From an uncultured Clostridia bacterium (GTDB taxonomy: Bacteria > Acidobacteriota > Aminicenantia > UBA2199), in assembly GCA_964400545.1 (NCBI GenBank), contig CAYNUG010000002.1, positions 2,671 to 66,670 on the forward strand: a stretch of DNA of 64,000 nt, written 5' to 3'. The position numbers and the translations under genes are program-made. This document shows positions 2,751 to 29,096 of this stretch, in pieces. The notes beneath the pieces are model-generated. The model worked only from the letters and a program-made list of their open reading frames with translations. It was not told the DNA's origin and did no database searches. Every line of letters begins with the position of its first letter. Positions within the stretch are counted from its first letter, which is position 1.

Positions 2751-3145
2751 TTTATTTTGATCTTTAGGGATAAAAATCCCTTAATAAATTTATAAACCGA
2801 ATTAAATGGAATTATTAACAACAATAATAAGGTTCTGCAAAGTCTCCGTTTCTCATTTATGAAAACATCAAAGTTCTCCGGCATACATTCACCCAGATAG
2901 GTCATGACCTGAAATTTTTTTATCAGTAATTGATTGGTTCCCATTATCCTCGATGCATATTCTGCCGCAGCGAGATCAGATATTCTGTCAATTATCATTC
3001 TGTAATTTATAAGGTCGCTTTCTAAGAATGTCGATTCCAATTTTGCTGATGCGTTCTCAAACCTCTGCAGAACTATGTCAGGGATATCCTTCCTGAATAT
3101 TGATCGGTATATATTTATAGCTTCCCCGTTTTTCATTTTTATCAT
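2747..3145 (-). CDS. Hypothetical protein (132 aa); its start overlaps the upstream GMC gene stop by 4 nt.
   Basis: ORF only. Overlap suggests co-transcription. Confidence 0.35.
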   Translation of the reverse strand: MIKMKNGEAINIYRSIFRKDIPDIVLQRFENASAKLESTFLESDLINYRMIIDRISDLAAAEYASRIMGTNQLLIKKFQVMTYLGECMPENFDVFINEKRRLCRTLLLLLIIPFNSVYKFIKGFLSLKIKIK

Positions 3146-3196
3146 TATATAATATTTTCCGTGTGTTTGAAATTCCGGAAGCAGGTTCAGCTCAGA

Positions 3197-4240
3197 TCAA
3201 TAAGAAAATTTTTTTATATACCATCTGACCGTGGATTCAAGTCCACTATTGAAACTCACTGATGGCTCCCATCCGAGCTCTTTTTTTATTTTTTCGCAAT
3301 TAATTGCATATCTCTTGTCGTGTCCCGGCCTGTCTGTAACAAATTTTATCAGTTCGGAATAGCTTTTTTTGCAGAAGGATCCCGGATTTTTACTGACCGG
3401 ATATACTCTGTCCATAATGTCACATATTCCCCTGACAACTTCAATATTCTTCATTTCGGAGTTCCCTCCAATGTTGTAGGTCTCCCCTGATCTCCCGTTA
3501 GATAAGATTTTCCAGATGGCAGAGCAATGATCTTTCACATAAAGCCAGTCCCTAATATTTGCTCCATCACCATAAACGGGGAGTGCTTCTCCTTCTATAG
3601 CCTGATGAATTATCAGCGGGATCAATTTCTCAGGATATTGATACGGGCCGTAATTATTGGAGCAATTGGAGAGCGTGACAGGGAGTTTGTATGTGTTTGC
3701 GTATGCTCGAACAAGATGATCGGAAGATGCTTTTGATGCTGAATAAGGGCTCTTCGGATCGTAAGGGGTTGTTTCAAGAAAGTATCCTTCTGTCCCCAGA
3801 CTGCCGTAAACCTCGTCTGTGGAAATGTGATGAAACAGATTTTTTTTGCCAGGTGTCCAAAATTCTCTTGCGGCTTCAAGAAGCACAAAAGTCCCTACAA
3901 TGTTTGTACGGATAAAATCTTCAGGTCCTGCGATAGATCTGTCAACATGAGATTCAGCTGCGAAATGAACAACAGTGTCTATTTTGAATTTTTTAAAGAT
4001 CTTATTTATATCTTCCCGGATACATATATCCGTTTTGCTGAAAAAATATCTCTCTCCTCCATATTTTTTTTCTATATCATTCAGATTGCTTTTATCTCCT
4101 GCATATGTGAGTTTGTCCGCATTTACAATTTTTCCCCGGAATCCCGTTTCTTCAAACATATAGCGGATGAAATTGCTTCCTATGAACCCGGCCCCACCTG
4201 TAACGAGAATATTGTTTAAGGCTCTTTTTTCAGTGGGCAT
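3197..4240 (-). CDS. rfbB: dTDP-glucose 4,6-dehydratase.
   Basis: ILVTGGAGFIGSNF Rossmann motif. Catalytic region STDEVYG and YSASKASSDHLVRAY (YxxxK) are typical RfbB. 347 aa. Confidence 0.9.
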   Translation of the reverse strand: MPTEKRALNNILVTGGAGFIGSNFIRYMFEETGFRGKIVNADKLTYAGDKSNLNDIEKKYGGERYFFSKTDICIREDINKIFKKFKIDTVVHFAAESHVDRSIAGPEDFIRTNIVGTFVLLEAAREFWTPGKKNLFHHISTDEVYGSLGTEGYFLETTPYDPKSPYSASKASSDHLVRAYANTYKLPVTLSNCSNNYGPYQYPEKLIPLIIHQAIEGEALPVYGDGANIRDWLYVKDHCSAIWKILSNGRSGETYNIGGNSEMKNIEVVRGICDIMDRVYPVSKNPGSFCKKSYSELIKFVTDRPGHDKRYAINCEKIKKELGWEPSVSFNSGLESTVRWYIKKFSY

Positions 4241-5110
4241 TTATTCCTCTTCAAGAATACTTATAAGATATTTCCCGTAATCACTGGGTGACAATCTGTC
4301 TGCCAGATATTTGAGTTCAGGTCTGCTTATATAGTTTCTTCTGAATGCAATTTCTTCAGGGCAGGATATTTTCAATCCCTGTCTGTCTTCTATTGTCTTA
4401 ACGAACATTGATGCATCGAGAAGGGAGCTGTTCGTTCCAGTATCAAGCCAGGCAAATCCCCGCCCCATCAGTTCCACTTTCATTTCGCCCCTCTTCAGGT
4501 ATTCGTTGTTGATATCTGTTATCTCGATCTCACCCCTTGCTGACGGTTTTATTGTGTGAGCCAGTTCAACCACGCTGTTATCATAAAAATACAATCCAAC
4601 TACTGCATAGTTTGATTTGGGCTCAGATGGTTTTTCCTCGATCGAAATAACTTTTTTATTCTTATCGAATTCTACTACACCGTATCTTTCAGGGTTTTTC
4701 ACATAATAACCGAAAACAATAGCACCTTTCTCTATTCTTCTGCTCTTCTCCAGCATTGAGATCAGATCATGGCCGTAAAAAATATTATCTCCCAGAATAA
4801 GGCATACACTGTCTGAGCCAATGAAATCTTTTCCTACTATGAATGCATCTGCTATTCCACGGGGCTCTGCCTGCTCTTTGTATTCTATTCTCAACCCCAG
4901 TTGTTTCCCGTTTCCCAACAATTTTTTAAACCTCGGGAGTTCTTCAGGTGTCGAAATTATCAGTATTTCTCTGATTCCTGCAAGCATAAGTGTGGAAAGG
5001 GGATAATAGACCATCGGTTTGTCGTAGACCGGTAAAAGTTGTTTTGATACAGGCAATGTCATTGGGTATAGCCTTGTCCCGTGTCCGCCTGCAAGAATTA
5101 TACCTTTCAA
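4241..5110 (-). CDS. rfbA: Glucose-1-phosphate thymidylyltransferase.
   Basis: [18 protein letters not shown]...[17 protein letters not shown] is the canonical RfbA N-terminus. 289 aa. Adjacent to rfbB. Confidence 0.9.
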
Positions 5111-5179: not shown

Positions 5180-6145
5180 TCATTGCTCATCGTACATATC
5201 TTTCATCATTTGAATTTTTTCAATAATGATGTTTCTTAATTCTGGTGGTTCGATCACTTTTACTCCGGGACCGAGCGCCAGGATATCTTTGGTTATCTCT
5301 CTATAATCGGATACCCGGAATGTAATGGTAATGTGACTATCATCCGATCCTTCAACTATTTGGTCGTCCGACCATACTTGTTCCATTGCGATCTTTGCTG
5401 CATCATCCGAAAATCTGAGGACAATCACTTTCTTTTCGCCCTCCAGAAAAATACCGTAATTTTCATAAACTTTTTTCCTCAGATCCTTTTTTCTCAATTT
5501 GCCCGGTATCGGCATCTTGGTAATCTCCGATTCGGTGATCCTTGACAGGACAAAATCTCTTACTTCCTTTTTCTCATCACAAAAGGCAAACATGTGCCAG
5601 TTCCCCATATACAGAAGGAGGTGCATCGGATTTACGATCCTTTCTCCCGGATCTTCTTTGTACGGAGATTTGTAAGTTATTTTAAGTTTCATGCCGGAGT
5701 TCAATGATCTGATTACCGATTCGAAAATAGCAGGAGTGACTTTGTAATATCGGATGTTCTTTATTGAAATCTTTTTTTCAAGAGCAGAAATATCAATTCC
5801 TGTCTCTCTTAAAAATTTTTTTATAAATAGATCGAATCTTTTTTTCCTCTTTTTATGAGGAATTGTTGAGGCAAGCCGTTTTGCAATTATCAGAGTAATG
5901 ATCTCCTCTTCGGATGCCCAGATTCCGGGGAGTTCGAACTTATCATCAGAATAAAAGTATCCGGTTTCGTTATTGGAGTATTCAATAGGAGCATCGAAAA
6001 ACAGCCTCATGAACTCGATCTCTCTTGATGCCTGCCGCTGTGATATCTCGAATTTTTCAGACAGATCGGATAATTTCGGATATTTCCCTGCCTTCAGTCT
6101 GGAATGAAACCACAGATAACGTTCGTAAGCCAGTTTCCCTGCCAT
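5180..6145 (-). CDS. WYL domain-containing transcriptional regulator (HTH-WYL-WCX architecture, YafY/PafBC-like).
   Basis: Start placed at internal Met MAGKLAYERYLWFH (ATG rev at 6143-6145) rather than the track ORF start at 6256. N-terminal HTH (KLSDLSEKFEISQRQASREI). Central WYL-type motif GNWHMFAFCDEKKEVRDFVLSRI. C-terminal WCX-like extension. Confidence 0.7.
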   Translation of the reverse strand: MAGKLAYERYLWFHSRLKAGKYPKLSDLSEKFEISQRQASREIEFMRLFFDAPIEYSNNETGYFYSDDKFELPGIWASEEEIITLIIAKRLASTIPHKKRKKRFDLFIKKFLRETGIDISALEKKISIKNIRYYKVTPAIFESVIRSLNSGMKLKITYKSPYKEDPGERIVNPMHLLLYMGNWHMFAFCDEKKEVRDFVLSRITESEITKMPIPGKLRKKDLRKKVYENYGIFLEGEKKVIVLRFSDDAAKIAMEQVWSDDQIVEGSDDSHITITFRVSDYREITKDILALGPGVKVIEPPELRNIIIEKIQMMKDMYDEQ

Positions 6146-6189
6146 ACAGAATTTATAACAGAAAAAGCAAAAAATTTCACGGCCTACTG

Positions 6190-6303
6190 TTTGAACTCTG
6201 ATTCGCTTGACTTTCTTGATGGGTTTTTTGTAGGGGCAGGCCTTGCGTCTGCCCAACTCACCGATATTTCAAGAGATGGGCGAATCGCCATTCGCCCCTA
6301 CAA
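6190..6303. repeat. Mosaic intergenic repeat, copy A. Module M1 (degenerate, ttgaactctgattcgcttgac) plus module M3 (ttttttgtaggggca) with nested hairpins: gggcag-N9-ctgccc, gggcgaat-cgcc-attcgccc, and outer tgtaggggc/gcccctaca.
   Basis: Seen directly. Shares the ctgattcgc and ttttttgtaggggca cores with the copies at 13049 and 17653. Lies in the divergent region between the WYL regulator and the first island gene. Confidence 0.7.
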
Positions 6304-6593
6304 TTCCATTTTCTGTTTGTTTATAATCTATATATTTCTCAGCATAAGGGTAGACGCGAGGCCTACCCCTACGTTAAATGATGGTTCTGACAAAAGGCTG
6401 GATATCTCCTGTGAAATTCCAGGAAGATAAATTGATTTAGAATTTAGAATTAAAAGTCATGGAAATTATAGTTTAAATAAATATTTGAATTGACGTGTCC
6501 GTATTAAAATATAGATCAAATGAAATTGTATAAAAAGTATTTCTTGGTTAGCATAATTATTAGCGATATCTTTTTTACTCAAATGGAGAAAAA

Positions 6594-8108
6594 ATGAAAA
6601 AGTATATATTGCTTTTCTTTCTTATAATGACATTTTTAATAATTACCGGATGTTCGGGGATTAATCAGAATAAGATTAGAACTGACAAGGAGATCATTGA
6701 AGAGGCACGTTTTCTGGAGATGGTTAAAAAAGGAAATAAAGAGTTTGAGAAAATGCACTGGGTGGGATGGACGAATGCGATCAGGATCTACAAGTCAGCT
6801 TTAAAGTTAATGGATTCCTTCGAAATTAGAAAGAAACTCTTTTTCTCTCTGCTGCTTCGTGCCGGGAGATCAAGTTTTCTTGCCCTTTCGGGGGTTGAGG
6901 ACATAAAAGCTGCTGAGAGTTTATTGCCGGAATTAGTAAAGAAAGAAAAGAATCTGCAACTGTATTATCAATTCGTAAAAGGAACAATATGTTCTACCAA
7001 ATCTTTTTCTCTCAAAAGAAGAGATTTGATTACTCTAAAACCTGACCTCAAAAAAGATTATGAGTATTTTTTATATATAACATTTCTCGGTAGATATTGT
7101 GACCTTAAGGAATACAGGGAAAATAGCGACAATATGATTAAAATTTTTCCCGAGTCCAATTTTAAATATTTTCTTCGTGATATTTTTATTGAAATAGATG
7201 TGGGTTTAAGAAAATATCCTGATTTTATTGAATTATTGTTGAGAAAGGGTGAGAGGTTTTTTAATACGGGAAAATTGAGAAAAGCCGAGGAATATTATTT
7301 GAAAGTTCTTGGATTCAATAAAAATGTTCCGTATGCTTTAACAGGATTGGGAGGGGTATATCTTAGTTACGAGCTGTATTCAAAAGCTCTTGATTTCTAT
7401 AATAGATCGGGAAAGAAAATTTCGCATTACTATAAAAATCTGTTCGGTAAAGCGGTCTGTTTATCTCAAATGGGAGAATATTTACGTTCGATTGAGGCTC
7501 TTGACATTATGCTGGAAAACAAACTCCCGTATCTTGGGGAGGCATATTATTACAGGGCATTTAATAATTTCTTATTGAAGGAATATGCAAAGGTAGAGCC
7601 TGATCTGAAAGCTTCCGAAGAATATATCGGGGATTCATTGGAATTAAACACTTTGTTCGGGATGTTTTATTATCAAACCGGAAGAGAAAAAGAATCGGTT
7701 AAATACTTCAAAAAAGCCATTCAAATTAATCCGGAATATCCGCGTCCTTATTATTATCTCGGATTTTTAGACGCAAACAAGAATAATATCAATGGATCAA
7801 TTATGCACTTCTCCCTCGCAGGGAAATTTTATCTGAAAATGATAAAAGGCAAAATCAAAAATATTAAGAATTTGAAGGATAGAGATTTGTCATCCGTTAG
7901 AAAAAAAGAAATTCGGGAAAAGAGGATTAAAAGGGTCAAGCAGAAGATCAAAGAAATAATCCGAAAATTAAACAAGGTAATATTGATGTTTAAAAAACTT
8001 CACCGAGAGAAGATCGAATTTTTATTTCATGTGATTGAGGAATTAAAAGTGTTAATGAAACCTGATTTTCTTGATGGCCATGATGTTATAGATATATTAC
8101 GGAGATGA
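6594..8108 (+). CDS. TPR-repeat lipoprotein with a basic coiled-coil C-terminal region.
   Basis: Signal peptide plus lipobox (LIITGCSG). Multiple TPR-like repeats (YYYRAFNNF, AIQINPEYPRPYYYLGF). Lys/Arg-rich C-terminal segment. Confidence 0.6.
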   Translation: MKKYILLFFLIMTFLIITGCSGINQNKIRTDKEIIEEARFLEMVKKGNKEFEKMHWVGWTNAIRIYKSALKLMDSFEIRKKLFFSLLLRAGRSSFLALSGVEDIKAAESLLPELVKKEKNLQLYYQFVKGTICSTKSFSLKRRDLITLKPDLKKDYEYFLYITFLGRYCDLKEYRENSDNMIKIFPESNFKYFLRDIFIEIDVGLRKYPDFIELLLRKGERFFNTGKLRKAEEYYLKVLGFNKNVPYALTGLGGVYLSYELYSKALDFYNRSGKKISHYYKNLFGKAVCLSQMGEYLRSIEALDIMLENKLPYLGEAYYYRAFNNFLLKEYAKVEPDLKASEEYIGDSLELNTLFGMFYYQTGREKESVKYFKKAIQINPEYPRPYYYLGFLDANKNNINGSIMHFSLAGKFYLKMIKGKIKNIKNLKDRDLSSVRKKEIREKRIKRVKQKIKEIIRKLNKVILMFKKLHREKIEFLFHVIEELKVLMKPDFLDGHDVIDILRR

Positions 8109-8165
8109 GCTCTGTGAACAATCATGGTAATCCTTTAATCGTGTAAATCATGGTTTAGACAATTA
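8058..8165. repeat. Mosaic intergenic repeat copy (modules M1+M2). It overlaps the last ~50 nt of the upstream CDS and continues into the intergenic region.
   Basis: About 75-80 percent identical over ~105 bp to copy B at 10726-10836 (cctgatt..cttgatggccatgatg..tatagat....aatcatggtaatc..gtaaatcatggtttagacaa). Confidence 0.7.
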
Positions 8166-8305
8166 AATGAACCATTTTTGAAAAAAGTTGTGACAATTTA
8201 GGGACAATATTCAAGGTACAGGACTAGAATCCATGGAAATTTACTTGCTAATAGTTATATGTTTAACAAAAGTGTGAACAACTCATTTGAGAGATGGGAG
8301 CGAGC

Positions 8306-9148
8306 ATGAAATATTTGTCAATTTTTTTATATATTTTGTTATTTGTTGTTTTAAGCGGAGAGGTTGATTATGAAAAAAAAAGTGAGGATCAATTAAACAA
8401 ATACCTCGCTGGATCTGCTGAATACTGCAAAAAGCTTAAGGGTGAAGCCTTTCATTTTTATTGCAAGGAAAAAATCTTGTTCGAAAGGGATGAGTTTGTT
8501 CTTGGATCAACTCGCAGGGGTAATCTTAAAAGGAGAAGATCAAGTACAAAATCATATTTTGACTATCAACTAATTCAGGAGGGCGGAAAGCTTAAAGAGA
8601 GGCGAAGGCGGATCTCAGATAAAGTAGCTGATGTAGAGATGGATCCATCTGAACTATTGCTGTCATTTTTAAGTGAAAAAGCAGTTTTCGGACCAAATTC
8701 TATTCTTGATCAGGCAAGGCAGAGTAATTTTAATTATAAAATATTTAAGAATAAAAAGACAAAAGAAAATGATATCGTTATTATTAAAGCGATTCCAAAA
8801 ATACCGGGGAGAACATTTTTTTTAGCAGCAGAGGTTTATATTGATAAGAAAAATTTCTCAGTAAGAAAGATCGTTGCTACTCCTGTATTCATCAAAGGAT
8901 ATGAGAATATGAAAAGGACTGCATCATATTTTAAGACCAGACTATTTCTTGATTGTGAGATCCTATTTGATCAGTCATACAAAGGTTTATTCTTCCCGAC
9001 ACTCATTACAATTACCGAGAAATATAAAGGAGGTCCTGTTGTAAATCGTAATACAAGATCTAAGGAGTGGGTAAAGAGTAAAACCACATTTAAGTACTAT
9101 GAATACAGATTCTTCGATGTGGATACTGAAGTTAAAGTTCAGGACTAA
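8306..9148 (+). CDS. Hypothetical secreted protein.
   Basis: Start taken at second Met (MKYLSIFLYILLFVVLSGE is a signal peptide) with GGAG 5 nt upstream. No recognisable domain. Confidence 0.45.
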   Translation: MKYLSIFLYILLFVVLSGEVDYEKKSEDQLNKYLAGSAEYCKKLKGEAFHFYCKEKILFERDEFVLGSTRRGNLKRRRSSTKSYFDYQLIQEGGKLKERRRRISDKVADVEMDPSELLLSFLSEKAVFGPNSILDQARQSNFNYKIFKNKKTKENDIVIIKAIPKIPGRTFFLAAEVYIDKKNFSVRKIVATPVFIKGYENMKRTASYFKTRLFLDCEILFDQSYKGLFFPTLITITEKYKGGPVVNRNTRSKEWVKSKTTFKYYEYRFFDVDTEVKVQD

Positions 9149-9160
9149 AAAGGAGTTGGG

Positions 9161-10711
9161 ATGAAGAATTTAACAGTTATTTTACTACTTGTTTTTTGTT
9201 TGTTTTCTATTGGATTGTTTGCTCAGGAGAAGGAGATCCGGGAGGATATGGTTGTTATCAATGTTGAGGTTCCTGTTCGGGTAATGCATAAGGGGAAGCC
9301 TGTTGATAATTTGAAAAAATCAGATTTCAGATTATTTGAGAACGGGAAAGAAATTGATATAAACGGATTCAATATTGTCAGGAAAAAAATATCAAGCCAG
9401 AGTATTGAACTTGATTCAGAGAGAAAACAATTCTATGAGCCGAGGTTATTTGTATTGGCATTCAGTGTCACAAATTTCAATAAATTCTATGAAAAAGGGG
9501 TCAGGTACTTTTTTAATACAGTATTGAGAAAAGAAGATAAATTGTTGATTTTTGTGAATAATGCGACCTTAACTTATAACAATTTGAATTCTAAACAGAA
9601 GATCCTTGAGGAAATAATTCTTAGATTGAATAAAGAAGGCAAAGAAGCAAGAAAAAATCTAAGACTTGTGATGATGAGAACGGACAGTGGAGTGAGAAAT
9701 TTAGTTGCAAAATTGAAATCACCACCAAACAGAGGAGCAAAATCTGTATTGCAAAGCGAAGTGTTATCATTTTTCATGCAATATCACTCTGCCTGGAAGA
9801 TGTATAAACAGAGTTATCTGACACTGGATATTTATACACTTTATAATTTTGCGGCATTTTTAAAAAGGATAACTCTGGAAAAATGGGTGATAAGCTTTTA
9901 TCAATATGAAAGGTTTTCCGTGATAAATTTCAATTCTTCCGGAGGTCAATTAATTAGAAAATATATGGGGCCGGAAAGTGGAAGAATTGCCGGTGCCGTT
10001 TCCCGGGAATTCACAGCCGGAAGGACTTTCCCGTATGAAGAGGTCAGCAAAATGTATTATAACCTTGGTGCGACATTTAATCTTGTTGTGATACCGACCA
10101 GAATTGAGACAGATTCTGAAGCAACAAAAACTGCTAACCTTTCAACGGCAGCAGAGATCACATTGAGAGAGATTGCCAAAAGGACAGGCGGATCTGTTTC
10201 ATTCTCTACAGATCTCACAAAATCACTCGAAAAAATTATTGAGAAGGAAGATATCAGCTATATTCTTACTTATGCACCGGAGGATAGTTCGAGAAGAGGG
10301 AGACTGAAGATCAAGCTCAAAGGTATGAGTTACAAACTTCTATATGATAATAATCAGAGAGCAGGTTTTATTAAAAGGAAAATGAAAAAATATACTGCTA
10401 AAGAGAAGATGGTGAAAGTTGAGAATCTTCAATTCCTGGATAAAAAACTCTTTTTTAGGATGATTAATTTCAAACAGAAAAAATACAAGAAGATAAAAGC
10501 AGGAAAGATCCAGGTCAATGTAATAATAAAAAATGATTTTGGTAAGATCCTGTTTGATGAAAATAAAATATTAAATCCTGAAAAAAAATCGACTGAAATG
10601 TCGATAGGTTTCAACTGGCTGAAGTCCGGCAAGTATGATCTGATAATTGATGTCAGAGATATGCTGACCAACCACAAAGCATTCGAATATTTGAAGATCG
10701 AGGTTAAGTGA
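9161..10711 (+). CDS. Hypothetical secreted protein (516 aa), possibly with a VWA-like fold.
   Basis: Signal peptide MKNLTVILLLVFCLFSIGLFAQE. Weak resemblance to VWA-like beta-alpha-beta pattern (LFVLAFSV.., KLLIFVNNATL, TGGSVSF). Function unknown. Confidence 0.4.
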   Translation: MKNLTVILLLVFCLFSIGLFAQEKEIREDMVVINVEVPVRVMHKGKPVDNLKKSDFRLFENGKEIDINGFNIVRKKISSQSIELDSERKQFYEPRLFVLAFSVTNFNKFYEKGVRYFFNTVLRKEDKLLIFVNNATLTYNNLNSKQKILEEIILRLNKEGKEARKNLRLVMMRTDSGVRNLVAKLKSPPNRGAKSVLQSEVLSFFMQYHSAWKMYKQSYLTLDIYTLYNFAAFLKRITLEKWVISFYQYERFSVINFNSSGGQLIRKYMGPESGRIAGAVSREFTAGRTFPYEEVSKMYYNLGATFNLVVIPTRIETDSEATKTANLSTAAEITLREIAKRTGGSVSFSTDLTKSLEKIIEKEDISYILTYAPEDSSRRGRLKIKLKGMSYKLLYDNNQRAGFIKRKMKKYTAKEKMVKVENLQFLDKKLFFRMINFKQKKYKKIKAGKIQVNVIIKNDFGKILFDENKILNPEKKSTEMSIGFNWLKSGKYDLIIDVRDMLTNHKAFEYLKIEVK

Positions 10712-10725
10712 TCTCAGGTATATTA

Positions 10726-10836
10726 TCTGAACCCTGATTCGCCTGATGGGCATGATGCCTATAGATTTATCCCGAAAATGAGTACTTTGAGTAATCATAG
10801 AAATCTTTTAATCAAGTAAATCATGGTTCGGACAAA
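10726..10836. repeat. Mosaic intergenic repeat, copy B (modules M1+M2): tctgaaccctgattcgcctgatgggcatgatgcctatagatttatcccg ... gtaaatcatggttcggacaa.
   Basis: Seen directly. Shares M1 with copies at 8058, 13049, 17653 and M2 with the copy at 8058. Confidence 0.75.
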
Positions 10837-10971
10837 AATTACTGTGAAGATTATTTAAGATTCTTCGGATAATTATTTTTAAGCTTCCAGAAATTAATTT
10901 CTTACAAAATAATTTGATTATGTCACAATTATCAATTGCAAACGTCATAGGGTATTGATATTAGAAAAGCT

Positions 10972-11487
10972 ATGAGAAATGAATATACGATGGATAATAA
11001 AAATATGATAGATCAATTGTTCACCCGGTATAACAAAAAAATATTCAACTTTGTTTTTCGCCTGACCGGAGATAGTGATCAGTCAAAAGATATAGTTCAG
11101 GAAACATTTATCAGAGTTTACAAAATACTAATGTCAGGATCGATTATCCAGAACCAGAAGGCAATAATCTTTAAGATCGCTTATAACCTTTTCATTGATA
11201 AATTCAGAAAGAACAAAAACACTATTAATAATAATTCCCTTCTTGAGCAAAGACAACATGAAATATTGAACCCTGAAGAGAATTACTTAAATACTGAAAA
11301 CAGAGAACTATTAACAAAAGGAATTAAAAGAATGAAGAGAAAAGAGCAGATATTGCTCGATTTGTATGCAGAGAATTTCTCATATAAAGAGATGGCAGAG
11401 ATCATAGACATGAACCAGAACTCTGTCGGGAAGACATTGTCGAGAACCATCGATAAGCTTTTCAAAAATGTAAATATCGGAGAATAA
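10972..11487 (+). CDS. RNA polymerase sigma-70 factor, ECF subfamily.
   Basis: Region 2 (IVQETFIRVYK...KIAYNLFIDKFRK) and region 4 (FSYKEMAEIIDMNQNSVGKTLSRTIDKL) signatures. 171 aa. Start could be the downstream Met at 10990. Confidence 0.8.
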   Translation: MRNEYTMDNKNMIDQLFTRYNKKIFNFVFRLTGDSDQSKDIVQETFIRVYKILMSGSIIQNQKAIIFKIAYNLFIDKFRKNKNTINNNSLLEQRQHEILNPEENYLNTENRELLTKGIKRMKRKEQILLDLYAENFSYKEMAEIIDMNQNSVGKTLSRTIDKLFKNVNIGE

Positions 11488-11488
11488 A

Positions 11489-11989
11489 ATGAAACATTTA
11501 AAAAGATTTAAAATACAGCTGTTTATAGATAATGAGTTGTCAAATGAAGAATGTAAAATAGCAGAAACTCATCTGGCAGAGTGCAAAGAGTGTAAATCAG
11601 TTGAAACTAATATTAGAAAAAAGATTTCTTTTCTGAAGAATGTAATAGCTGAATCAGGCGTAGAGAGAACCCCGGAAATGAAATTTGTTCCTGAGATTCC
11701 CAAAGAAATCTCTAGGAAAAAGAAATATATAAGATTACCTGTCCCGGTATTTGCAGCAATGATTGGAATAATTGTGTTTATGGGATTAATGCTGTTGTTT
11801 AATGGAAATCAGGCAAAAGGATCTATTCCTGAGATCGAAGGAAAATCTATTGTTAATTATGTAAGAGTTGAGTCGGAGAGTTCGAGAGAGATAAGTTCTA
11901 TAAACTTGGATCTGTCTGAATATTCAGCAATAAAAAAGCCCAAAATCAGGGTGATAAAGAGAGGAAAAACAAAAAATGAAAAAATTTAA
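11489..11989 (+). CDS. Anti-sigma factor, zinc-finger (ZAS-like HxxxCxxC) with a single transmembrane helix.
   Basis: Starts 2 nt after the sigma gene stop. HLAECKECK motif. TM segment VPVFAAMIGIIVFMGLMLLF. Confidence 0.65.
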   Translation: MKHLKRFKIQLFIDNELSNEECKIAETHLAECKECKSVETNIRKKISFLKNVIAESGVERTPEMKFVPEIPKEISRKKKYIRLPVPVFAAMIGIIVFMGLMLLFNGNQAKGSIPEIEGKSIVNYVRVESESSREISSINLDLSEYSAIKKPKIRVIKRGKTKNEKI

Positions 11990-13034
11990 AATTTTATTTC
12001 TATTAATGTCAGTTATTTTTTTTCCTGGTAAAGGTTTTCCGGCAGGATCAGAAATGGTTAAAAACAATGATACCGGGGATACCGAAAAGGTCACTTTTTC
12101 CCAGCAGGAAGAATTCATATCTGTAACTGACAAGAATCCGGATTATAAGTCGAAAACTTTTATCAAACTGTCAATTAAGATAATTGAGATTAAATCATCA
12201 AAATCGATCCTTAAATCTGAATTAGCAATAAAAGTGATTGATGGTGAAGAAGGTAGTGTAAGGATAGGTTCTGGTCCTCCTGTGAAGAAACCTATAAATT
12301 ATAAATCAAAAATAAAACGTGAAATGATGGTTATAAATATCTCTCCCAAGATAATTAAGGATAAAGGCATTCGACTGAGTATTAAAACCTCATATTTTGT
12401 AACTGATGATGCTTATGCTAAGTTCAATAATCGAAAGGACCAATCTCAGAGTGCAAATTCATCGAGTGATGTATTAACGGCGAATTTAGAAGAGGTAATG
12501 ATTGATTTGCTTGAAAACAAGAAAAAAAAATCAAAAATAGTAATGAAGGTGACACCTTTCATTGAAACAATCTCAGGTGCTAAAGTTTATCCAGGGATAG
12601 TTAAATTCAAACTGATGACACCTATTCTTATAATGAATGATGAATTAATATACAAAAATACGAGTTCCCCGGATTTTATGTCCGGAGTATCATCAGATAA
12701 GACAATTAAATCGAGTTGTTTTATTGAATGCATAGTTAGAAAAAAGAATACAGGTTCTTTTCTTCTATCGGTTAAACCGTTCAAGGGATTAAAAAAAGTC
12801 GGAGTTGTAAACAATAAGATCATGAAATTCAGGTTTGAGAAAGACAAATTTGAATTAATATCACTCGAACAAATTCTTCCGCTTGAAGGGAAGTGGATTA
12901 TTTATGGGATGCATATTCCTGTAAAAAAGTTTGGTGGAGATCCTCTTGACAGAAATCCTTTCATTAAGGGTAAGGGTGGAGTTTATGTGTTATGTGTGGG
13001 TGATGTGGAAGAATATCTAAAAGATCTTTTGTGA
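11976..13034 (+). CDS. Hypothetical secreted protein co-transcribed with the sigma/anti-sigma pair.
   Basis: Signal peptide MKKFKILFLLMSVIFFPG. 14-nt overlap with the anti-sigma gene. Confidence 0.45.
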   Translation: MKKFKILFLLMSVIFFPGKGFPAGSEMVKNNDTGDTEKVTFSQQEEFISVTDKNPDYKSKTFIKLSIKIIEIKSSKSILKSELAIKVIDGEEGSVRIGSGPPVKKPINYKSKIKREMMVINISPKIIKDKGIRLSIKTSYFVTDDAYAKFNNRKDQSQSANSSSDVLTANLEEVMIDLLENKKKKSKIVMKVTPFIETISGAKVYPGIVKFKLMTPILIMNDELIYKNTSSPDFMSGVSSDKTIKSSCFIECIVRKKNTGSFLLSVKPFKGLKKVGVVNNKIMKFRFEKDKFELISLEQILPLEGKWIIYGMHIPVKKFGGDPLDRNPFIKGKGGVYVLCVGDVEEYLKDLL

Positions 13035-13048
13035 TTTTGAGGGACATT

Positions 13049-13181
13049 ATCTGAGCCCTGATTCGCCTGATTAATCTGATGGCATGTTGGTGTAGTTCTA
13101 TCCCGGAGATATTTTTTTGTAGGGGCAAATGGCAATTTGTCCGGATTTGGACAAGATAAATCGGTGAATTGCCATTCACTC
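13049..13181. repeat. Mosaic intergenic repeat, copy C (modules M1+M3). Contains ttttttgtaggggcaaatggcaatttgtccggatttggac and hairpin ggtgaat-tgcc-attcact followed by a T-rich tract.
   Basis: Seen directly. M1 matches copy B over the first ~50 bp. M3 matches copies A and D. Confidence 0.75.
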
Positions 13182-13331
13182 CTTGTATATTAGATTATTA
13201 AATTAGTTTTATTGATTTAATTGCTTAAGGCAATAAATATGTTGTGCTTTGGTATCGTTTTATAGTTAGTTTGAAAATTAACTTTGAATTTTATATGATC
13301 TTGCTAAGGTTTTTTAAGAGATGGAGGGATT

Positions 13332-14129
13332 ATGAAAAAAGGTATTGTGCTATTGCTAATTGTTTTTTCCATGTCACTGTTCAGTGATGAATTTACAAGA
13401 TATGATATTCAGAATTCTTATTCCAAACTCTTTTCGATTGAGGCGATGGAATATAAGGGGAAAAAGTATATCAGTGTTCGGGTAAGTAAAAATGAGGATG
13501 CGGTTTTTTCAGAATTAACCGAGTCCTATTATTTTTTCCTTACATATCTGATAACTAACGGGAGTAAATATGATTTCGAAGAAATAAAAAAAGAGACTGA
13601 TAAGAATAAGATGAATGAACTTTTCGTAAATCAGCTGAAAAAAAATGATAGGTTCAACAACCTGGTGGTTCCTGTAATTTCCCGTTATCTGATCTCAAAA
13701 GGGCATTTGGTGCCATTCTTTAAGCCTGAAGAGGATAAACCGGTCACAATAACTGAGATACAAAGAACAGCTGTCAGGTTCTTTTATCCCCATTTAGGCA
13801 GGAATGGGAAAATGCAATTTTACATTTGTGCAGGGATAAACGGTTTTAAAGATTTTGGCGGAAAGAGAAATTTACTTGTCGAGGCATTTGCGTATGCGGC
13901 AATATTTAATGATCTAGGAACTGATTCGAAAGTTAACCTGTCAACAATATTTTCAAAACTCCTCGGGAAGATCATGAAGCTGGGAATGTCAAATGATAAA
14001 GATGTAAATGTCCATCGTATTCAGGGAGCCGCCTGGTTTGAGATGAGTAAAGACAAAAAACTGGAAAAGGTTTTGATCAATTCATTTAGAGTTCACAAGT
14101 CTCTATTGCCATTCAAACTGGAAATGTGA
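13332..14129 (+). CDS. Hypothetical secreted protein.
   Basis: Signal peptide MKKGIVLLLIVFSMSLFSDE. 265 aa. Confidence 0.45.
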   Translation: MKKGIVLLLIVFSMSLFSDEFTRYDIQNSYSKLFSIEAMEYKGKKYISVRVSKNEDAVFSELTESYYFFLTYLITNGSKYDFEEIKKETDKNKMNELFVNQLKKNDRFNNLVVPVISRYLISKGHLVPFFKPEEDKPVTITEIQRTAVRFFYPHLGRNGKMQFYICAGINGFKDFGGKRNLLVEAFAYAAIFNDLGTDSKVNLSTIFSKLLGKIMKLGMSNDKDVNVHRIQGAAWFEMSKDKKLEKVLINSFRVHKSLLPFKLEM

Positions 14130-14220
14130 AAACACAATCAAAGAAGTGTTTTAAAATTTTGGAATAATTTTATTTAAAATTATATAATTCTTTTAATAGA
14201 GTTTTTCCGGGGGAAAAGGA

Positions 14221-15222
14221 ATGAGAAAGTTTATATTGTTCATATTGCTGGGTTTGATTGTACTTAATATTCCTGCAAAGAAGCTGGCCGAGTTTGATGA
14301 TATCTATAAGCCCTGGCAAATTGAAATCTCTGGTGATGATCTGTATGTGGTTGATGACTATTCTATCAAACTTTTTTCATTGAAAAATGCAAAGCTTATT
14401 GCCCAGTTTGGGAAAAAAGGGGAAGGGCCGGGGGAATTTAAAATGTCTCCTTCAATATCTGTTTTTCCTGATTATATCTTTGTCAGTGATTACGGTAAGA
14501 TACTTTTTTTCAAGAGAGATGGCAAGTATATTAGGGAAAAGAAAATTCCTGCTGAAATTGATCTTACGAAGGTAGGGAAGAATTACCTTGCCAGAGAATA
14601 TAGCTTTGATGCAAAAGAAAGAAAAAGCAAATTCGGAGTTAAAGTTGTAGATAGTGAATTAAAAAAAATTAAAGATATATATACATTTACGAGAAAGTTT
14701 CCTAGACGCAATATCAATAGCAAAAAAAAGAACATATTTGACCGTGAAATGTTTCAAAAGAGAAAGAGAATTACTACTGATGGTAATTTTATTTATCTAT
14801 ATGATACAAGCAAAGGGTTCCATATAGAAATTTTTGATCCTATGGGAGAAAAGATCAGAACTATTACAAAAAAAACAGAATTAGTAAAAATCAGTAATAA
14901 GTTTAAGAAAAAATATGCTGAAAATTTGGAGAAGAACAGAAAGAAAAATATAGGAGGAATATCATTCGGGTTTAATTATATTTTCCCAGAGTATTTCCCT
15001 CCAATAATTTATTTATCTGCGGATAACAAAAAGATTTATGTTACTACCTATGAAAATGATGCGGATAAAAGAACTCTTATTATTCTTGATCATAATGGTG
15101 TAATACAAAAAAAAATCTCGATATTAACTCAAAATATGTCAACTATACATAATGATAAACTTTATTATCTCATCGACAATGAAGATGAAGAGGTGTGGGA
15201 ACTTCATGCTGAGGATCTATAA
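14221..15222 (+). CDS. Secreted 6-bladed beta-propeller (NHL-like) family protein, paralog 1.
   Basis: Signal peptide. Repeated blade motif with GKKGEGPGEF (NHL-type G.G.G.F signature). Paralogous to the two following genes. Confidence 0.6.
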   Translation: MRKFILFILLGLIVLNIPAKKLAEFDDIYKPWQIEISGDDLYVVDDYSIKLFSLKNAKLIAQFGKKGEGPGEFKMSPSISVFPDYIFVSDYGKILFFKRDGKYIREKKIPAEIDLTKVGKNYLAREYSFDAKERKSKFGVKVVDSELKKIKDIYTFTRKFPRRNINSKKKNIFDREMFQKRKRITTDGNFIYLYDTSKGFHIEIFDPMGEKIRTITKKTELVKISNKFKKKYAENLEKNRKKNIGGISFGFNYIFPEYFPPIIYLSADNKKIYVTTYENDADKRTLIILDHNGVIQKKISILTQNMSTIHNDKLYYLIDNEDEEVWELHAEDL

Positions 15223-15270
15223 TTTATAAATAGTCATAGTGGGATGTATTACTTCTGAACAGGGGGTTGG

Positions 15271-16266
15271 ATGAAATTCTTTATAATTTTTAATTTATTA
15301 TTTATTTCACTCTTTTCTGTTGTTCTTAACAGTAAAGTATTGTGGAAAAGTTCTATTGTTATAGGAATGCCCGTCAAAGTAGTAGTAAATAAGGAAGGGA
15401 TTTTTATTGGGGACAGTAAGCAAATAAAAATATTTCATCTTGATCTTAATGGGAAAATGATCTCTGAGATCGGTAAGCCGGGTGAAGGCCCGAATGAATT
15501 TACAAGTCTGCAGGATTTTGCAATTCATAAAGAAAAAATATATGTAAAAAGTAACTCCCGAATAAAATGCTTGAATTTAAAAGGGGAATTCATAAATAAG
15601 TGGAACTTTACAATGAAATATACCGTGCACCACTTTTTTGTAAACGAATCTGGTTTTATCCTGGTGGGGAAAAAATTCGAGACAGACCCAAAAGCTTATT
15701 CAAAACCGGAAACATCTCCCTATAATTTTTTTCATAATATTTCATTTAGTGGAGAGCTGATAAAAAGTTTCGGACCATCTTTCCCTGAGCTGGAAAAACT
15801 GAACGTGTGGGATAATCTTCTAATCCTTGCAGGTATGACTCCTTCCGTTATTAATAATGAAATATTTTATGCTAATCATCTGAATTACCAGATCTGGAAA
15901 GCATCAATACGTAGTGGGGAGAGTGTTAAATTAATCGATGAAGATGTCTTATACTTTATTCCATTCTTATCCAAACTTAATCAGTTTTCCGGAAAAGGAG
16001 GAACAATAACCAGGGGAGATATCAGGGGAACATATATAAGGTTTTTCAAGGATGGGGAAAAATTAGTAGTGTATTTAAAGGGTGGCAGCTGGAGTAAAGG
16101 ATACAAATCCACATACTTAAGAGTATACGCTCTTCAACCTCATGTTAGATTCATAAAGGAAACAAAGCTTGATAACAACCTGAATGTTTTTTCCTATTAT
16201 AATGGTGTGTTTTATGGATTTGATGATGAAGGAGATTTTCTGGCAATGAAGATTGATTCGAACTGA
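15271..16266 (+). CDS. Secreted 6-bladed beta-propeller (NHL-like) family protein, paralog 2.
   Basis: Signal peptide. GKPGEGPNEF blade motif aligns with GKKGEGPGEF of the neighbours. Confidence 0.6.
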   Translation: MKFFIIFNLLFISLFSVVLNSKVLWKSSIVIGMPVKVVVNKEGIFIGDSKQIKIFHLDLNGKMISEIGKPGEGPNEFTSLQDFAIHKEKIYVKSNSRIKCLNLKGEFINKWNFTMKYTVHHFFVNESGFILVGKKFETDPKAYSKPETSPYNFFHNISFSGELIKSFGPSFPELEKLNVWDNLLILAGMTPSVINNEIFYANHLNYQIWKASIRSGESVKLIDEDVLYFIPFLSKLNQFSGKGGTITRGDIRGTYIRFFKDGEKLVVYLKGGSWSKGYKSTYLRVYALQPHVRFIKETKLDNNLNVFSYYNGVFYGFDDEGDFLAMKIDSN

Positions 16267-16405
16267 GGGATAATCAGATATGGGAGAATTCGGAGTAGGA
16301 AATTTCAACATGGGATTTGATAGTTCCAAATGAATGTGAAGTTATTTTTCTTGAAATGTTAGTTCGATAGATATTTGTAATATCTTAAATATATAGGAGG
16401 TACAA

Positions 16406-17554
16406 TTGAAAAAATTATTTATTCTATTGTCATTGCTATTCATCATGGTTTGTTTCAATAATTTGCTTCCCCGGGATAAAGATACTTTTAAAAGTAATTC
16501 CGGATCTTCCATTCTTAATAAAAATGAGAGAGTGTTGATGTTGAAAAAAGTCTTTTCTCTTGAGGGGAATTCAGATGAATATCAGTTTAAAGATCCTATC
16601 AGGTTTGATATCGGAGAGGATGGTTCAATCTTTATCATGGACCGGAACAGGGCTCTTTACAAATTTTCAGAAGAAGGAATATTTCAGAAGAATCTGCTAA
16701 TAAAAGGAGAGGGTCCGGGGGAGTTGAAACGCCTGTTCAGGTTCTTTATAGATAATAACAGAGTCATTCTGTTTGATCACTTTCCAAACAAAATTGTTGA
16801 AAAAGATTTTAAGGGAAAGTTTATAAATAACTTCTCAATTCCAGAAAGAAAACTTAAGGTCGTAATTCTTCTGGGGATTGAAAGTGGATTGTTCTTTTTC
16901 TCTATAGCAGAAGATGGGAACATCCCGAAAAAACTTTCAAAAGAATATAGAGAATTTTCCAGAAAAATTTTTTTTCACACTTGGAAAAATGGAGAAAAAA
17001 ATATAAAAAAGGGTGAGTCTTTCTACATAGATCATTCCAGGTGGAAAAGAAAACAAAAATATATTATCGGCGGCACATCACCGCTAAATGCATTTGAGAT
17101 CAGCAATGTAAAAAATGGTTCTGCATATTTTATAAATAGCTTTGATTATAAGATTAAAAAACTTGATGTTCATGACCTGAAGATTAAAAATGAGTTTGGC
17201 AGGCCTTATGTTAGAGTCAAATATTTCCATCCTCCCGAATATCTTGAAGAGATGAGAAGGGAAAAGAAATCTGTCGAAGATCCGGAAAAAAAACATTTTC
17301 AGGCAGTTCAGAAATTGATCAATAGAGGAACTGAGGTGTGGGCGGTTACTTCAACGTTTAAAAAGGATAAAGGCATTTTAGTCGATGTGTTTTCTCCGGA
17401 TGGAACGTATATGGATAAATTCTACTTACCCCTTCCTGAGATAACATCTTCTCACTTGCCTGAATTTAATATTGTAGATAATAAAATCGTCATTCTTGGA
17501 AAAGATGAAGATGAGAACCACATCATAAATATTTATGAAATAGTAGATTTGTAA
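16406..17554 (+). CDS. Secreted 6-bladed beta-propeller (NHL-like) family protein, paralog 3 (TTG start).
   Basis: AGGAGG RBS 6 nt upstream of TTG at 16406. Signal peptide. IKGEGPGELKRLF blade motif. Confidence 0.6.
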   Translation: MKKLFILLSLLFIMVCFNNLLPRDKDTFKSNSGSSILNKNERVLMLKKVFSLEGNSDEYQFKDPIRFDIGEDGSIFIMDRNRALYKFSEEGIFQKNLLIKGEGPGELKRLFRFFIDNNRVILFDHFPNKIVEKDFKGKFINNFSIPERKLKVVILLGIESGLFFFSIAEDGNIPKKLSKEYREFSRKIFFHTWKNGEKNIKKGESFYIDHSRWKRKQKYIIGGTSPLNAFEISNVKNGSAYFINSFDYKIKKLDVHDLKIKNEFGRPYVRVKYFHPPEYLEEMRREKKSVEDPEKKHFQAVQKLINRGTEVWAVTSTFKKDKGILVDVFSPDGTYMDKFYLPLPEITSSHLPEFNIVDNKIVILGKDEDENHIINIYEIVDL

Positions 17555-17652
17555 CTTTGCGAGGCTGGGATGAATCGGTGTGAGAACTTCATGTTGTTTA
17601 TTTGTAGGGAGCGAGAGAGGATTGATTTTAATGAGTGGACAAATTAAAAAAT

Positions 17653-17775
17653 GTCTGAACCCTGATTCCATTTGTTATCCTGATTTACATAGATGGAGAT
17701 TAGTGTAGGGGCAAATGGCCATTTGCCCGGATTTGAACTGAAATATCAAAAGCGGTTACACTATGTCCCCTAGTT
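17653..17775. repeat. Mosaic intergenic repeat, copy D (modules M1+M3). Contains a perfect 20-bp palindrome GGGCAAATGGCCATTTGCCC at 17708-17727.
   Basis: Seen directly. tctgaaccctgattcc ... gtgtaggggcaaatggccatttgcccggatttgaac. Confidence 0.75.
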
Positions 17776-17814
17776 GAGTTTGATATTCCCCAAGTGTCAT
17801 TGTAGAATTGTCTG

Positions 17815-28414: not shown

Positions 28415-29095
28415 ATGAAAAAATTGAAATTCTCCGATTCTGATTTAAAAAGAATAGGGGAAGCAGTTAAAGAAGCAGAACAGAAAACCTCCGGTGAGAT
28501 TAAAATTGCTTTTATAAGGGAAAGTTATGATTATGCAAAGTATGAACTTTTCTTTGCAGTTGTAATTGGTTTTATTTATACAGCAATTCTTCTCATGTTC
28601 CCGGGATCGGTTGACTCTTTTATAAAGAACATGTTCTGGGGATATTTGCCGTTGTATACAATTGTGTTTTATGGGATCTCTCCTTTTTTTGTAATTACAA
28701 TGTTCTATATCCTTGCAAATCTTTCTTTTGTTGACAGAATGATTGTTCCGGAATCGGTGATGAATGCGAGGGTACATGAAAGAGCAATGAGATATTTTGC
28801 GGAATCGGGGGTTTTTAATACTCGAGACAGGACTGGAATACTTATTTTCCTTTCATTTATGGAGAGGAGAGTTGTCCTTATGGCTGACTCCGGCATTGCT
28901 TTAAAAATTCCTCAGGAGAACTGGGATGGTATTGTAGGTCATATAACCGAAGGAATTCAGAAGGGAAAGACGGTAGATTATCTTATCGATTCCATAGGAG
29001 AATGTGGGAAGCTTCTTGCCGAAGCAGATAAGTTCCCAATAAAATCGGATGACACAAATGAGCTTAGAGATGAAGTGTCAATCCTGGAGAGCTGA
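28415..29095 (+). CDS. Membrane protein of the LemA-associated TPM/DUF477-like family (two central TM helices).
   Basis: Position directly after lemA. SGEIKIAF motif. Hydrophobic segments FFAVVIGFIYTAILLMF and ISPFFVITMFYILANL. Confidence 0.5.
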   Translation: MKKLKFSDSDLKRIGEAVKEAEQKTSGEIKIAFIRESYDYAKYELFFAVVIGFIYTAILLMFPGSVDSFIKNMFWGYLPLYTIVFYGISPFFVITMFYILANLSFVDRMIVPESVMNARVHERAMRYFAESGVFNTRDRTGILIFLSFMERRVVLMADSGIALKIPQENWDGIVGHITEGIQKGKTVDYLIDSIGECGKLLAEADKFPIKSDDTNELRDEVSILES

Positions 29096-29096
29096 T

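Follow-up and report, generated by a model that had tools for sequence, protein, structure and literature searches.

Five intergenic repeats punctuate an island of genes for secreted proteins in a 64,000-nucleotide (nt) stretch of DNA from an uncultured bacterium of the Aminicenantia lineage (positions 2,671 to 66,670 of contig CAYNUG010000002.1, assembly GCA_964400545.1; hereafter, the window). An initial annotation, made from the sequence alone, described them as assembled from three modules, M1, M2, and M3; we name each repeat by its starting position as 6190, 8058, 10726, 13049, and 17653. With moderate confidence, we favor a reading in which the repeats are gene-less or decayed copies of a cross-phylum inverted-repeat element that, when complete, includes a GxxExxY nuclease gene, accompanied by hairpins that resemble repetitive extragenic palindromic (REP) sequences, all of them lying at the joints of a hypervariable island. 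Two kinds of repeat would thus be present: the first (M1+M2) would be a gene-less copy, similar to a MITE (a miniature inverted-repeat transposable element), of an element with terminal inverted repeats (TIRs), and the second (M3) would be a GTAG-headed hairpin, similar to a REP or a REP doublet forming a hairpin (REPIN), situated inside or beside copies of the first kind.

The five repeats are related and lie where they were first placed: all align with one another, and none occurs elsewhere in the 64 kb. The M1 21-mer, the M2 tail, and the M3 25-mer each have two to three matches at ≤3 mismatches where shuffled sequences are expected to give 0.00 to 0.02, so chance similarity of the modules is excluded. 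Both blastn with each element (word size 7) and a profile search found no further significant partners, in agreement with the proposed confinement of the family to five sites of the window. The assignment of modules also stands, with M1+M2 at 8058 and 10726 and M1+M3 at 6190, 13049, and 17653; at 6190, the element ends near 6393 rather than at 6303, an M2-type tail (TTAAATGATGGTTCTGACAA) occupying 6374-6393. What did not hold is the separation of M1 from M2: the M2 end (AATCATGGTTCRGACAA) is the reverse complement of the M1 start (tCTGAACCCTGATT), and M1 and M2 are therefore the two arms of a single inverted-repeat element. This inverted-repeat nature had gone unnoticed, as had the spread across phyla and the link to GxxExxY described below. 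The 8058 and 10726 copies are 78% identical over 108 nt (blastn); both (8055-8162 and 10724-10835) have the size and ends of a MITE, being short, non-coding, and bounded by TIRs (CTGAAC..GTTCGGAC).

The repeats encroach on neighboring reading frames. At its 3′ end, the TPR gene (6594-8108) takes its last 17 codons, as well as its stop codon, from the 8058 copy. The TPR homologue in one related locus, L210 (4990-5040), has another C terminus, yet it carries the same terminus-plus-flank string (GGTTCAGACAATTAAATGAACCATTTTTGAAA) as window positions 8058-8108. The 6190 element occupies the divergent gap that separates the TPR gene from a WYL regulator gene on the minus strand (5180-6145). An open reading frame (ORF) of 108 amino acids (aa) at 6104-6430 (plus strand; ...GRIAIRPY...), which runs through these repeats and also overlaps the WYL gene at its start, is almost certainly a spurious product of the palindromes.

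Outside the window, the M1 pattern is widespread. A scan of one genome per species found at least 120 stretches beside unrelated genes, spread over no fewer than 42 assemblies and about a dozen phyla. Carriers include Desulfobacterota (Desulfobacterales; two Desulfatirhabdium metagenome-assembled genomes [MAGs] have dozens of stretches apiece), Ignavibacteria/Chlorobiota, Bacteroidota (among them the isolates Ginsengibacter hankyongi BR5-29 and Mucilaginibacter pedocola TBZ30), Omnitrophota, Latescibacterota, Chloroflexota, Spirochaetota, Fibrobacterota, Patescibacteria, Magnetococcales, and Calditrichaceae. The window has five copies, all in one island; other genomes, such as the Desulfatirhabdium MAGs, have dozens. 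Pairing of left with right arms in the loci selected by their arms yielded 243 elements of 60 to 240 nt. Their ends read (ATT)GTCTGAAC...GTTCAGAC(AAT), and each arm is built of three or four GATT units at a spacing of 8 to 9 nt (four per arm in 21 of 33 elements), with the consensus TGTCTGAACCCTGATT-CACCTGATT-AAAGGATT-TnCAGGATT...loop...AATCCTTTAATCAGGTGAATCAGGGTTCAGACAAT. Head-to-tail tandem arrays are frequent (for example, in L026 and L046), with up to 7 to 12 copies lying 3 to 12 nt apart. At positions 3000-4300 of a Ginsengibacter hankyongi locus (L050), GATT-arm elements are interleaved with a second, GC-rich repeat of ~150 nt (...acgtcaccccgggccgggtcttccgg...gggagagggggttgggggtgaggc...), forming a 1.2-kb mosaic intergenic region analogous to the mixture of M1 and M3 in the window.

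A profile of 104 positions, built with nhmmer from 33 elements (one per locus, none from Aminicenantes), matched 10726 and 8058 over their full length and the other three repeats by the left arm only (Table 1), and it found nothing else of note in the window. Given this difference between full-length and left-arm matches, 10726 and 8058 are shown, on sequence grounds, to be intact members of the cross-phylum inverted-repeat family, and the other three are fragments. The profile scores alike on both strands, as expected of symmetric arms. The consensus element had no blastn match in plasmid and phage collections, and viral contigs yielded only seven stretches with arms and one related GxxExxY gene; phages are thus no obvious vector. 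We found no description of the element in a literature search with sequence strings and family names, which did not cover all journals, nor is it mentioned in a 2024 review of prokaryotic MITEs. The cross-phylum family, its arms of phased GATT units, the lack of target duplication, and the association with GxxExxY are all absent from the literature searched.

In addition to a REP- or MITE-like mosaic, the initial annotation had considered cis-regulatory or RNA-level elements specific to the island. Being intergenic, on the same strand as the genes, and stably folded, the repeats might be taken for a structured small RNA or a cis-regulatory RNA (an attenuator or small RNA precursor). Their predicted folds are more stable than those of shuffled sequences: z = −3.3 for 8058 (DNA fold), −3.7 for 10726, and −4.0 for 6190, where 6229-6254 pairs with 6348-6373. 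However, when the 32-pair hairpin was examined in a one-per-locus alignment, 82.0% of cells were paired compared to 81.9% in column shuffles, and 239 of 500 shuffles did at least as well; arm positions that vary between GATT units are often unpaired, and RNAalifold reported mainly invariant pairs. An anchored count over 190 copies had suggested covariation, but the signal was lost in the one-per-locus alignment with shuffle controls; subfamilies and near-identical copies explain the count. Base-pair covariation beyond the conserved inverted-repeat sequence was therefore not found, and because it fails the shuffle controls, we treat the match between the arms as inverted-repeat identity rather than as selection for pairing. 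We conclude that what is conserved is the inverted-repeat sequence, above all the termini and the phased GATT units, and not the pairing, which points to recognition of duplex ends by a protein rather than to a structured RNA.

Other results also run counter to an RNA or a regulator dedicated to the island. Searches of the window and four carrier loci against Rfam 15, at the gathering threshold and at E values up to 5, gave no relevant match, and a scan for tRNA and tmRNA genes found none. The repeats are symmetric on both strands, their neighbors are unrelated genes in the 42 or more carrier assemblies, which span many phyla, none of the repeats contains a canonical terminator, and the orthologous sites of relatives hold other mixtures of modules or nothing. 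An island-specific regulator, as DNA or RNA, is thus not borne out, and we regard the RNA reading as extremely improbable. Separately, a subthreshold Rfam match to the archaeal C/D-box RNA sR2 at 16219-16268 (plus strand; E = 0.013; 26.9 bits, where the gathering score is 42) extends across the stop codon of a propeller ORF (15271-16266) and is most likely due to chance.

Alternatively, the repeats may be cis elements useful to the host at operon ends, as 3′-end stabilizers, RNase III sites, weak terminators, or insulators; such roles have been proposed for REP sequences and the bacterial interspersed mosaic elements (BIMEs) that they form, for enterobacterial repetitive intergenic consensus (ERIC) sequences, and for Correia elements. 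All five repeats lie between transcription units, four of them directly after a stop codon, and the folds of the full copies, better than those of shuffles, would suit such a role. An element also follows the gene for a 516-aa protein at the orthologous site in the window and in relatives L208, L209, and L210, and REPs in general lie mainly downstream of genes and are plausibly transcribed (PMC3733652). Against this, none of the 10 terminator-like sites between 5900 and 18100 lies inside an element, pairing is no better than in shuffled alignments, the modules at one site vary among relatives (with no element after the orthologous gene in L126 and L127), and tandem arrays of up to 7 to 12 copies occur in other genomes. 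We rejected the hairpins as Rho-independent terminators: no T run follows them, the sequence behind being A-rich or mixed. A role at operon ends therefore seems unlikely to us as the explanation of the repeats, although it could coexist, as a secondary role, with a selfish origin.

The arms are physically linked to a nuclease gene in other genomes. When all ORFs of 120 arm-selected loci were clustered in a search for a shared neighboring enzyme, no transposase or integrase cluster appeared, and the only recurrent element-adjacent genes were those encoding GxxExxY proteins and PIN toxins. A GxxExxY gene is present in seven of these loci, from seven different lineages; in six it lies inside an arm pair or against an arm, within ~100 nt, and several genes lie between a left and a right arm. 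In the seventh locus (L056), the strict arm pattern is 1.3 kb away, but an arm variant (GTCTGAAT/ATTCAGAC) encloses the gene. The product matches TIGR04256 (E = 2e-38) and PF13366 (PDDEXK_3; E = 8e-37); the seven aligned proteins are 57 to 63% identical, with D66, E76, and K78 invariant. Identity between GxxExxY proteins of different phyla ranges from 57 to 79%, the highest value being that of a Leptospiraceae protein to the Mucilaginibacter query.

We then reversed the search, scanning metagenomes with the GxxExxY protein alignment. The family is very large (all 8,000 scored candidates had E ≤ 1e-10), and the scan gave 80 loci. In 31 of these, GTCTGAA[CT] lies ≤150 nt upstream of the gene and [AG]TTCAGAC lies ≤200 nt downstream; among genes with complete flanks, 28 of 65 have both arms. 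On the same 80 loci, swapping the orientation of the arms reduced the count to 5, and random placements gave 0 of 1,460. The gene-bearing form spans ~450 to 675 bp, with a single gene for a GxxExxY/PDDEXK_3 nuclease of ~125 aa, its D..ExK motif intact, between the arms; the left arm ends 0 to 90 nt before the ATG, and the right arm begins just past the stop codon. Gene-bearing units are discrete modules, with 70 to 94% identity among themselves and mostly unrelated flanks, and they fall into GGATT and GAATT subfamilies in which all GATT-type units of the two arms change in concert. One gene-bearing unit lies between unrelated genes in Mucilaginibacter sp. 14171R-50, whose genome is complete, and gene-bearing and gene-less copies in Mucilaginibacter share the same arm variant (CCTTGATTCG...AATCAAGCGAATCAGGG). 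The arms and the GxxExxY gene are thus tightly coupled physically in many unrelated contexts.

These observations suggest how the family might work. The GxxExxY-bearing form looks like an autonomous element: its nuclease would bind the phased GATT units of both arms and cut at the conserved termini, and such cutting would mobilize the unit, as well as gene-less copies in trans, without target-site duplication. Of the window copies, 8058 and 10726 would be non-autonomous and 6190, 13049, and 17653 decayed. Copies that flank gene blocks in the same orientation could serve as recombination substrates by which blocks are added or removed, and the repeats would be selfish or neutral residents rather than dedicated regulators of the secreted-protein genes. 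As a more general proposal, which we make only tentatively and hold to be somewhat doubtful, GxxExxY proteins (TIGR04256/PF13366) may be the mobility nucleases of an unrecognized class of inverted-repeat elements of ~0.5 kb that would recognize phased GATT units, insert with no target duplication, and pass between phyla; the gene-less hairpin derivatives and arrays of these elements may seed recombination hot spots like the Aminicenantes island.

Several findings weigh against this scheme. Neither transposition nor cleavage is reported in the literature searched for GxxExxY/PDDEXK_3 proteins, whose function is given there as "unknown"; the nuclease has no sequence match in the PDB or in PADLOC, and its AlphaFold model is unusable (pLDDT of 51). 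Both arms flank only 31 of the 80 genes of the GxxExxY subfamily. PIN/VapC toxin-antitoxin modules also lie between left and right arms (L067, 2822-3769; L071, 4300-5393; L073, 1826-2794), so GxxExxY could be cargo instead of the mobility enzyme. No target-site duplication was found: direct repeats of 2 to 7 nt at 66 solitary copies are not more frequent than in shuffles; the flanks of solitary copies read ATT before GTCTGAA and AAT after TTCAGAC, extending the palindrome. Nor did we find a clean pair of empty and filled sites, the matches to joined flanks being uninformative because all are internal to arrays. Without target duplication or such a pair, it is the distribution of the copies that speaks for mobility. 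Several gene-bearing units are orthologously placed even though their flanks are merely 75 to 87% identical (L153/L170, L168/L179/L189, and L133/L135/L144); such positions suggest long vertical persistence rather than rapid turnover and, together with the element found after the 516-aa gene in four relatives, long residence with possible benefit to the host. Finally, GxxExxY genes are absent both from the window and from ~116 kb of non-duplicate loci of relatives. The window has a gene of another nuclease family at 62783-63544 (minus strand), which encodes a 253-aa PDDEXK_1/Cas4-like protein (E = 7e-28) unrelated to GxxExxY; no clustered regularly interspaced short palindromic repeat (CRISPR) array or cas genes were seen near it.

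The second kind of repeat has its own anatomy. Each M3 unit consists of a GTAG head and a GC-rich palindrome of ~20 nt, and units are arranged as inverted doublets. REPs are defined as GC-rich imperfect palindromes of 20 to 40 nt with an unpaired GTAG tag at one end (PMC3733652), and REPs and REPINs share the GTAG head, the GC-rich palindrome, and the inverted pairs (PMC3733652, PMC3116915). The palindromes noted earlier in M3 are present in all three M3-bearing elements, and five units have the GTAG tag and palindrome of a REP (6229-6254, 6278-6302, 6348-6373, 13118-13142, and 17704-17728). Inverted pairs, as in REPINs and BIMEs, are formed by 6229-6254 with 6348-6373 and by 13121-13137, which pairs with 13167-13183, and they are seen also in L208 and L209. 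The first of these pairs extends over ~25 bp and shows compensating changes (GGGGCAG..CTGCCC in one unit, GGGGTAG..CTACCC in the other). We therefore take M3 to be a GTAG-headed hairpin of the REP/REPIN type; for its nesting, Anabaena variabilis offers a precedent, with dimers of a GTAG REP (GTAG-15) enclosed by a longer palindrome (PMC3733652).

About seven REP-like units occur in the 64 kb, all of them in the island and only inside or beside M1/M2 elements. M3 units are uniform in sequence inside one genome but not from one genome to the next (GGGGCAAATGGCCATTTGCCC in the window, with hairpins carrying the string GTAGGGGC; GGGGCGGAATCCAAATCCGCCCC, twice, in L208); in addition, the window shares several units, and one complete doublet together with its linker, with L209 and L210, where they occupy other positions. 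As the initial annotation had stated, no REP-associated tyrosine transposase (RAYT) or other transposase is found among the window ORFs that were scanned with Pfam or had precomputed hits, with about a dozen ORFs at 21 to 64 kb unscanned; none was seen in the loci of relatives either, which counts against the reading that we favor. RAYTs are usually single-copy genes, so one may sit elsewhere in the genome.

The repeats mark the joints of the island that contains them. They delimit four blocks: the TPR gene; the genes for the 284- and 516-aa proteins; those for an extracytoplasmic function (ECF) σ, its anti-σ, and a 352-aa protein; and those for a 265-aa protein and three DUF5128 propellers. 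The island has a GC content of 33.1%, compared to 38.7% in the rest of the window, and homologues of its 516-aa protein bear Aminicenantes names; relatives of the source genome include the assemblies GCA_023136725.1, GCA_039714475.1, and GCA_942492175.1. All five intergenic gaps of ≥180 nt inside the island contain an element, in contrast to none of ~11 elsewhere; within the window, the clustering of copies in one island thus holds. Between the same flanking WYL and LOG genes there are 10 genes in the window, 9 in L210, and only 2 in L126, L127, and L209. The repeats differ as well. In L208, a REP pair and a right arm follow the 516-aa gene, and the site equivalent to 13049 has a single REP of other sequence and no M1; L209 has a left arm at the orthologous gap; L210 has two full M1+M2 copies and, ahead of the LOG gene, a right arm together with a REP doublet; and the gaps of L126 contain almost nothing. 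Among relatives, the island is hypervariable, with repeats at the joints of its blocks. Upstream of the ECF σ gene, a stretch at ~10918-10956 (tgtcacaattatcaattgcaaacgtcatagggtattgat) is identical in L208 (~3500-3537), where the proteins are 86% identical; it is probably an autoregulated ECF-type promoter.

Such an arrangement recalls an integron-like cassette array without an integrase (CALIN), in which the repeats would be attC-like sites and the blocks would be cassettes inserted by a site-specific recombinase. As in such an array, imperfect palindromes punctuate variable blocks of same-strand genes, relatives differ in block content, and toxin-antitoxin modules lie between arms in other genomes; the AAC...GTT termini (GTCTGAAC/GTTCAGAC) resemble the R″/R′ cores of attC sites. 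However, unlike the asymmetric attC sites, the arms are symmetric and score equally on both strands; the blocks are operons of several genes, preceded by long promoter regions of their own, rather than promoterless single ORFs; copies elsewhere form nearly spacerless head-to-tail arrays (3 to 12 nt between copies); and sequence is conserved across phyla, while attC sites are taxon specific. In addition, the GxxExxY gene lies within one split element and not between two complete ones, and the window ORFs scanned include no integrase or recombinase. In view of the symmetry, the arrays, and the structure of the blocks, we reject the attC reading as very unlikely, and we retain MITE- and REP-like copies at the joints of a hypervariable island. 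The coordinates of the island and its repeats are listed in Table 1.

Table 1. Variable island, repeats, and profile matches in the window (positions are those of the window; profile matches refer to the 104-position profile built from other phyla)
Feature	Coordinates	Strand	E value	Description
Variable island	6146..17814	+		Ten same-strand genes between the WYL regulator gene and the LOG gene; contains all five elements
Composite element 6190	6188..6393	+		Degenerate left arm (~6188-6225, TTGAACTCTGATTCGCTTGA), three GTAG-type palindromes, right-arm terminus TTAAATGATGGTTCTGACAA
Profile match	6188..6212		0.23	Left arm only, weak
REP-like unit A	6229..6254	+		TGTAGGGGCAGGCCTTGCGTCTGCCC; GTAG head, then GC-rich palindrome
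REP-like unit B	6278..6302	-		TGTAGGGGCGAATGGCGATTCGCCC; linker AACTCACCGATATTTCAAGAGAT and unit recur before the LOG gene in relative L210
REP-like unit A′	6348..6373	-		Inverted copy of A; GTAGACGCGAGGCCTACCCCTAC identical in relative L209, there before the LOG gene
Full-length gene-less element 8058 (M1+M2)	8055..8162	+		GAT[TG] at 8064, 8073, and 8082; right arm ends GGTTTAGACAA
Profile match	8056..8161		4.7e-11	Full length, positions 6-104 of 104
Full-length gene-less element 10726 (M1+M2)	10724..10835	+		Lies after the 516-aa gene's stop codon and before the conserved ECF σ promoter region
Profile match	10724..10834		3.8e-15	Full length, positions 2-104 of 104
Element 13049, left half of inverted-repeat element	13048..13108	+		M1 through TATCCCGGAGAT; without right arm; aligns with 10726
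Profile match	13048..13088		7e-4	Left arm only
REPIN-like doublet	13118..13187	.		Forward unit TGTAGGGGCAAATGGCAATTTGTCC (13118-13142); degenerate inverted unit (~13164-13187)
Element 17653, left-arm fragment	17652..17690	+		TGTCTGAACCCTGATTCC...
Profile match	17652..17670		0.018	Left arm only
REP-like unit and partner	17704..17773	.		TGTAGGGGCAAATGGCCATTTGCCC (17704-17728), perfect 20-nt palindrome; degenerate inverted partner ...GTCCCCTAG (~17765-17773)

Outside the island, a gene for a TPM-domain protein (29049-29828) has glycine-rich direct repeats of the GGSGG type at its C-terminal end (29727-29821).

The repeats of the window, then, should not be read as regulators of secreted-protein genes but as marks of the joints of a fast-changing island. 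Beyond the window, an element of ~100 nt recurs in about a dozen phyla with its ends almost unchanged and has a long form with a nuclease gene, which belongs to a family of thousands of proteins to which the literature searched assigns no function. If the nuclease does move the element, we would be dealing with a minimal mobile element of a new kind, and GxxExxY proteins would gain a testable function, the binding and cutting of defined GATT-repeat arms; cultured carriers exist among Mucilaginibacter and Ginsengibacter isolates. For annotation of MAGs, it matters that the repeats create spurious ORFs (6104-6430) and artificial C termini (the TPR gene).

Taken simply as intergenic repeats, the five elements belong to a known kind, being partly MITE-like and partly REP-like, and the mosaic of REP/BIME or MITE type proposed at the outset was essentially right: M1/M2 is a short, non-coding TIR element, multicopy in many genomes, and M3 is REP-like. 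M3 shares with the GTAG REPs, REPINs, and BIMEs of RAYT transposases (PMC2817692, PMC3116915, PMC3733652) the GTAG head, the GC-rich palindrome of ~20 nt, and the inverted doublets; like them, it is extragenic, lies mostly downstream of genes, has a genome-specific sequence, and is nested in a longer palindrome. It differs in the absence of a RAYT from the scanned window ORFs and the loci of relatives and in its ~7 units per 64 kb, all in the island, and the M1/M2 arms differ from REPs in having no GTAG head. REPs are typically present in >100 copies per genome, dispersed and extragenic.

The gene-bearing form also invites comparison with the intervening sequences (IVSs) of 23S rRNA, such as that of Coxiella burnetii (428 nt, with the S23p ORF; PMC4990558): both are selfish units of ~0.4 to 0.7 kb in which complementary arms enclose one small ORF of no known function. 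The IVSs, however, lie in 23S helices and are removed from the RNA, whereas the present units lie in ordinary intergenic DNA, encode another protein family, have gene-less derivatives and arrays, and show no link to rRNA. Closest in form are bacterial MITEs such as Correia/NEMIS, ERIC, and RUP (PMC3184786, PMC10969869), likewise non-coding, intergenic, multicopy repeats of 85 to 130 nt with TIRs and a long hairpin, for which longer relatives with a gene between the same ends and fusions with the 3′ ends of ORFs are also features in common. Unlike MITEs, the elements described here have no detected target-site duplication, their arms are built of phased 8- to 9-nt GATT units, and their long form encodes a 125-aa nuclease of the PD-(D/E)XK type rather than a DDE or HUH transposase; and their ends are nearly identical in about a dozen phyla, in contrast to the bacterial MITEs described so far, none of which extends beyond a genus or family.

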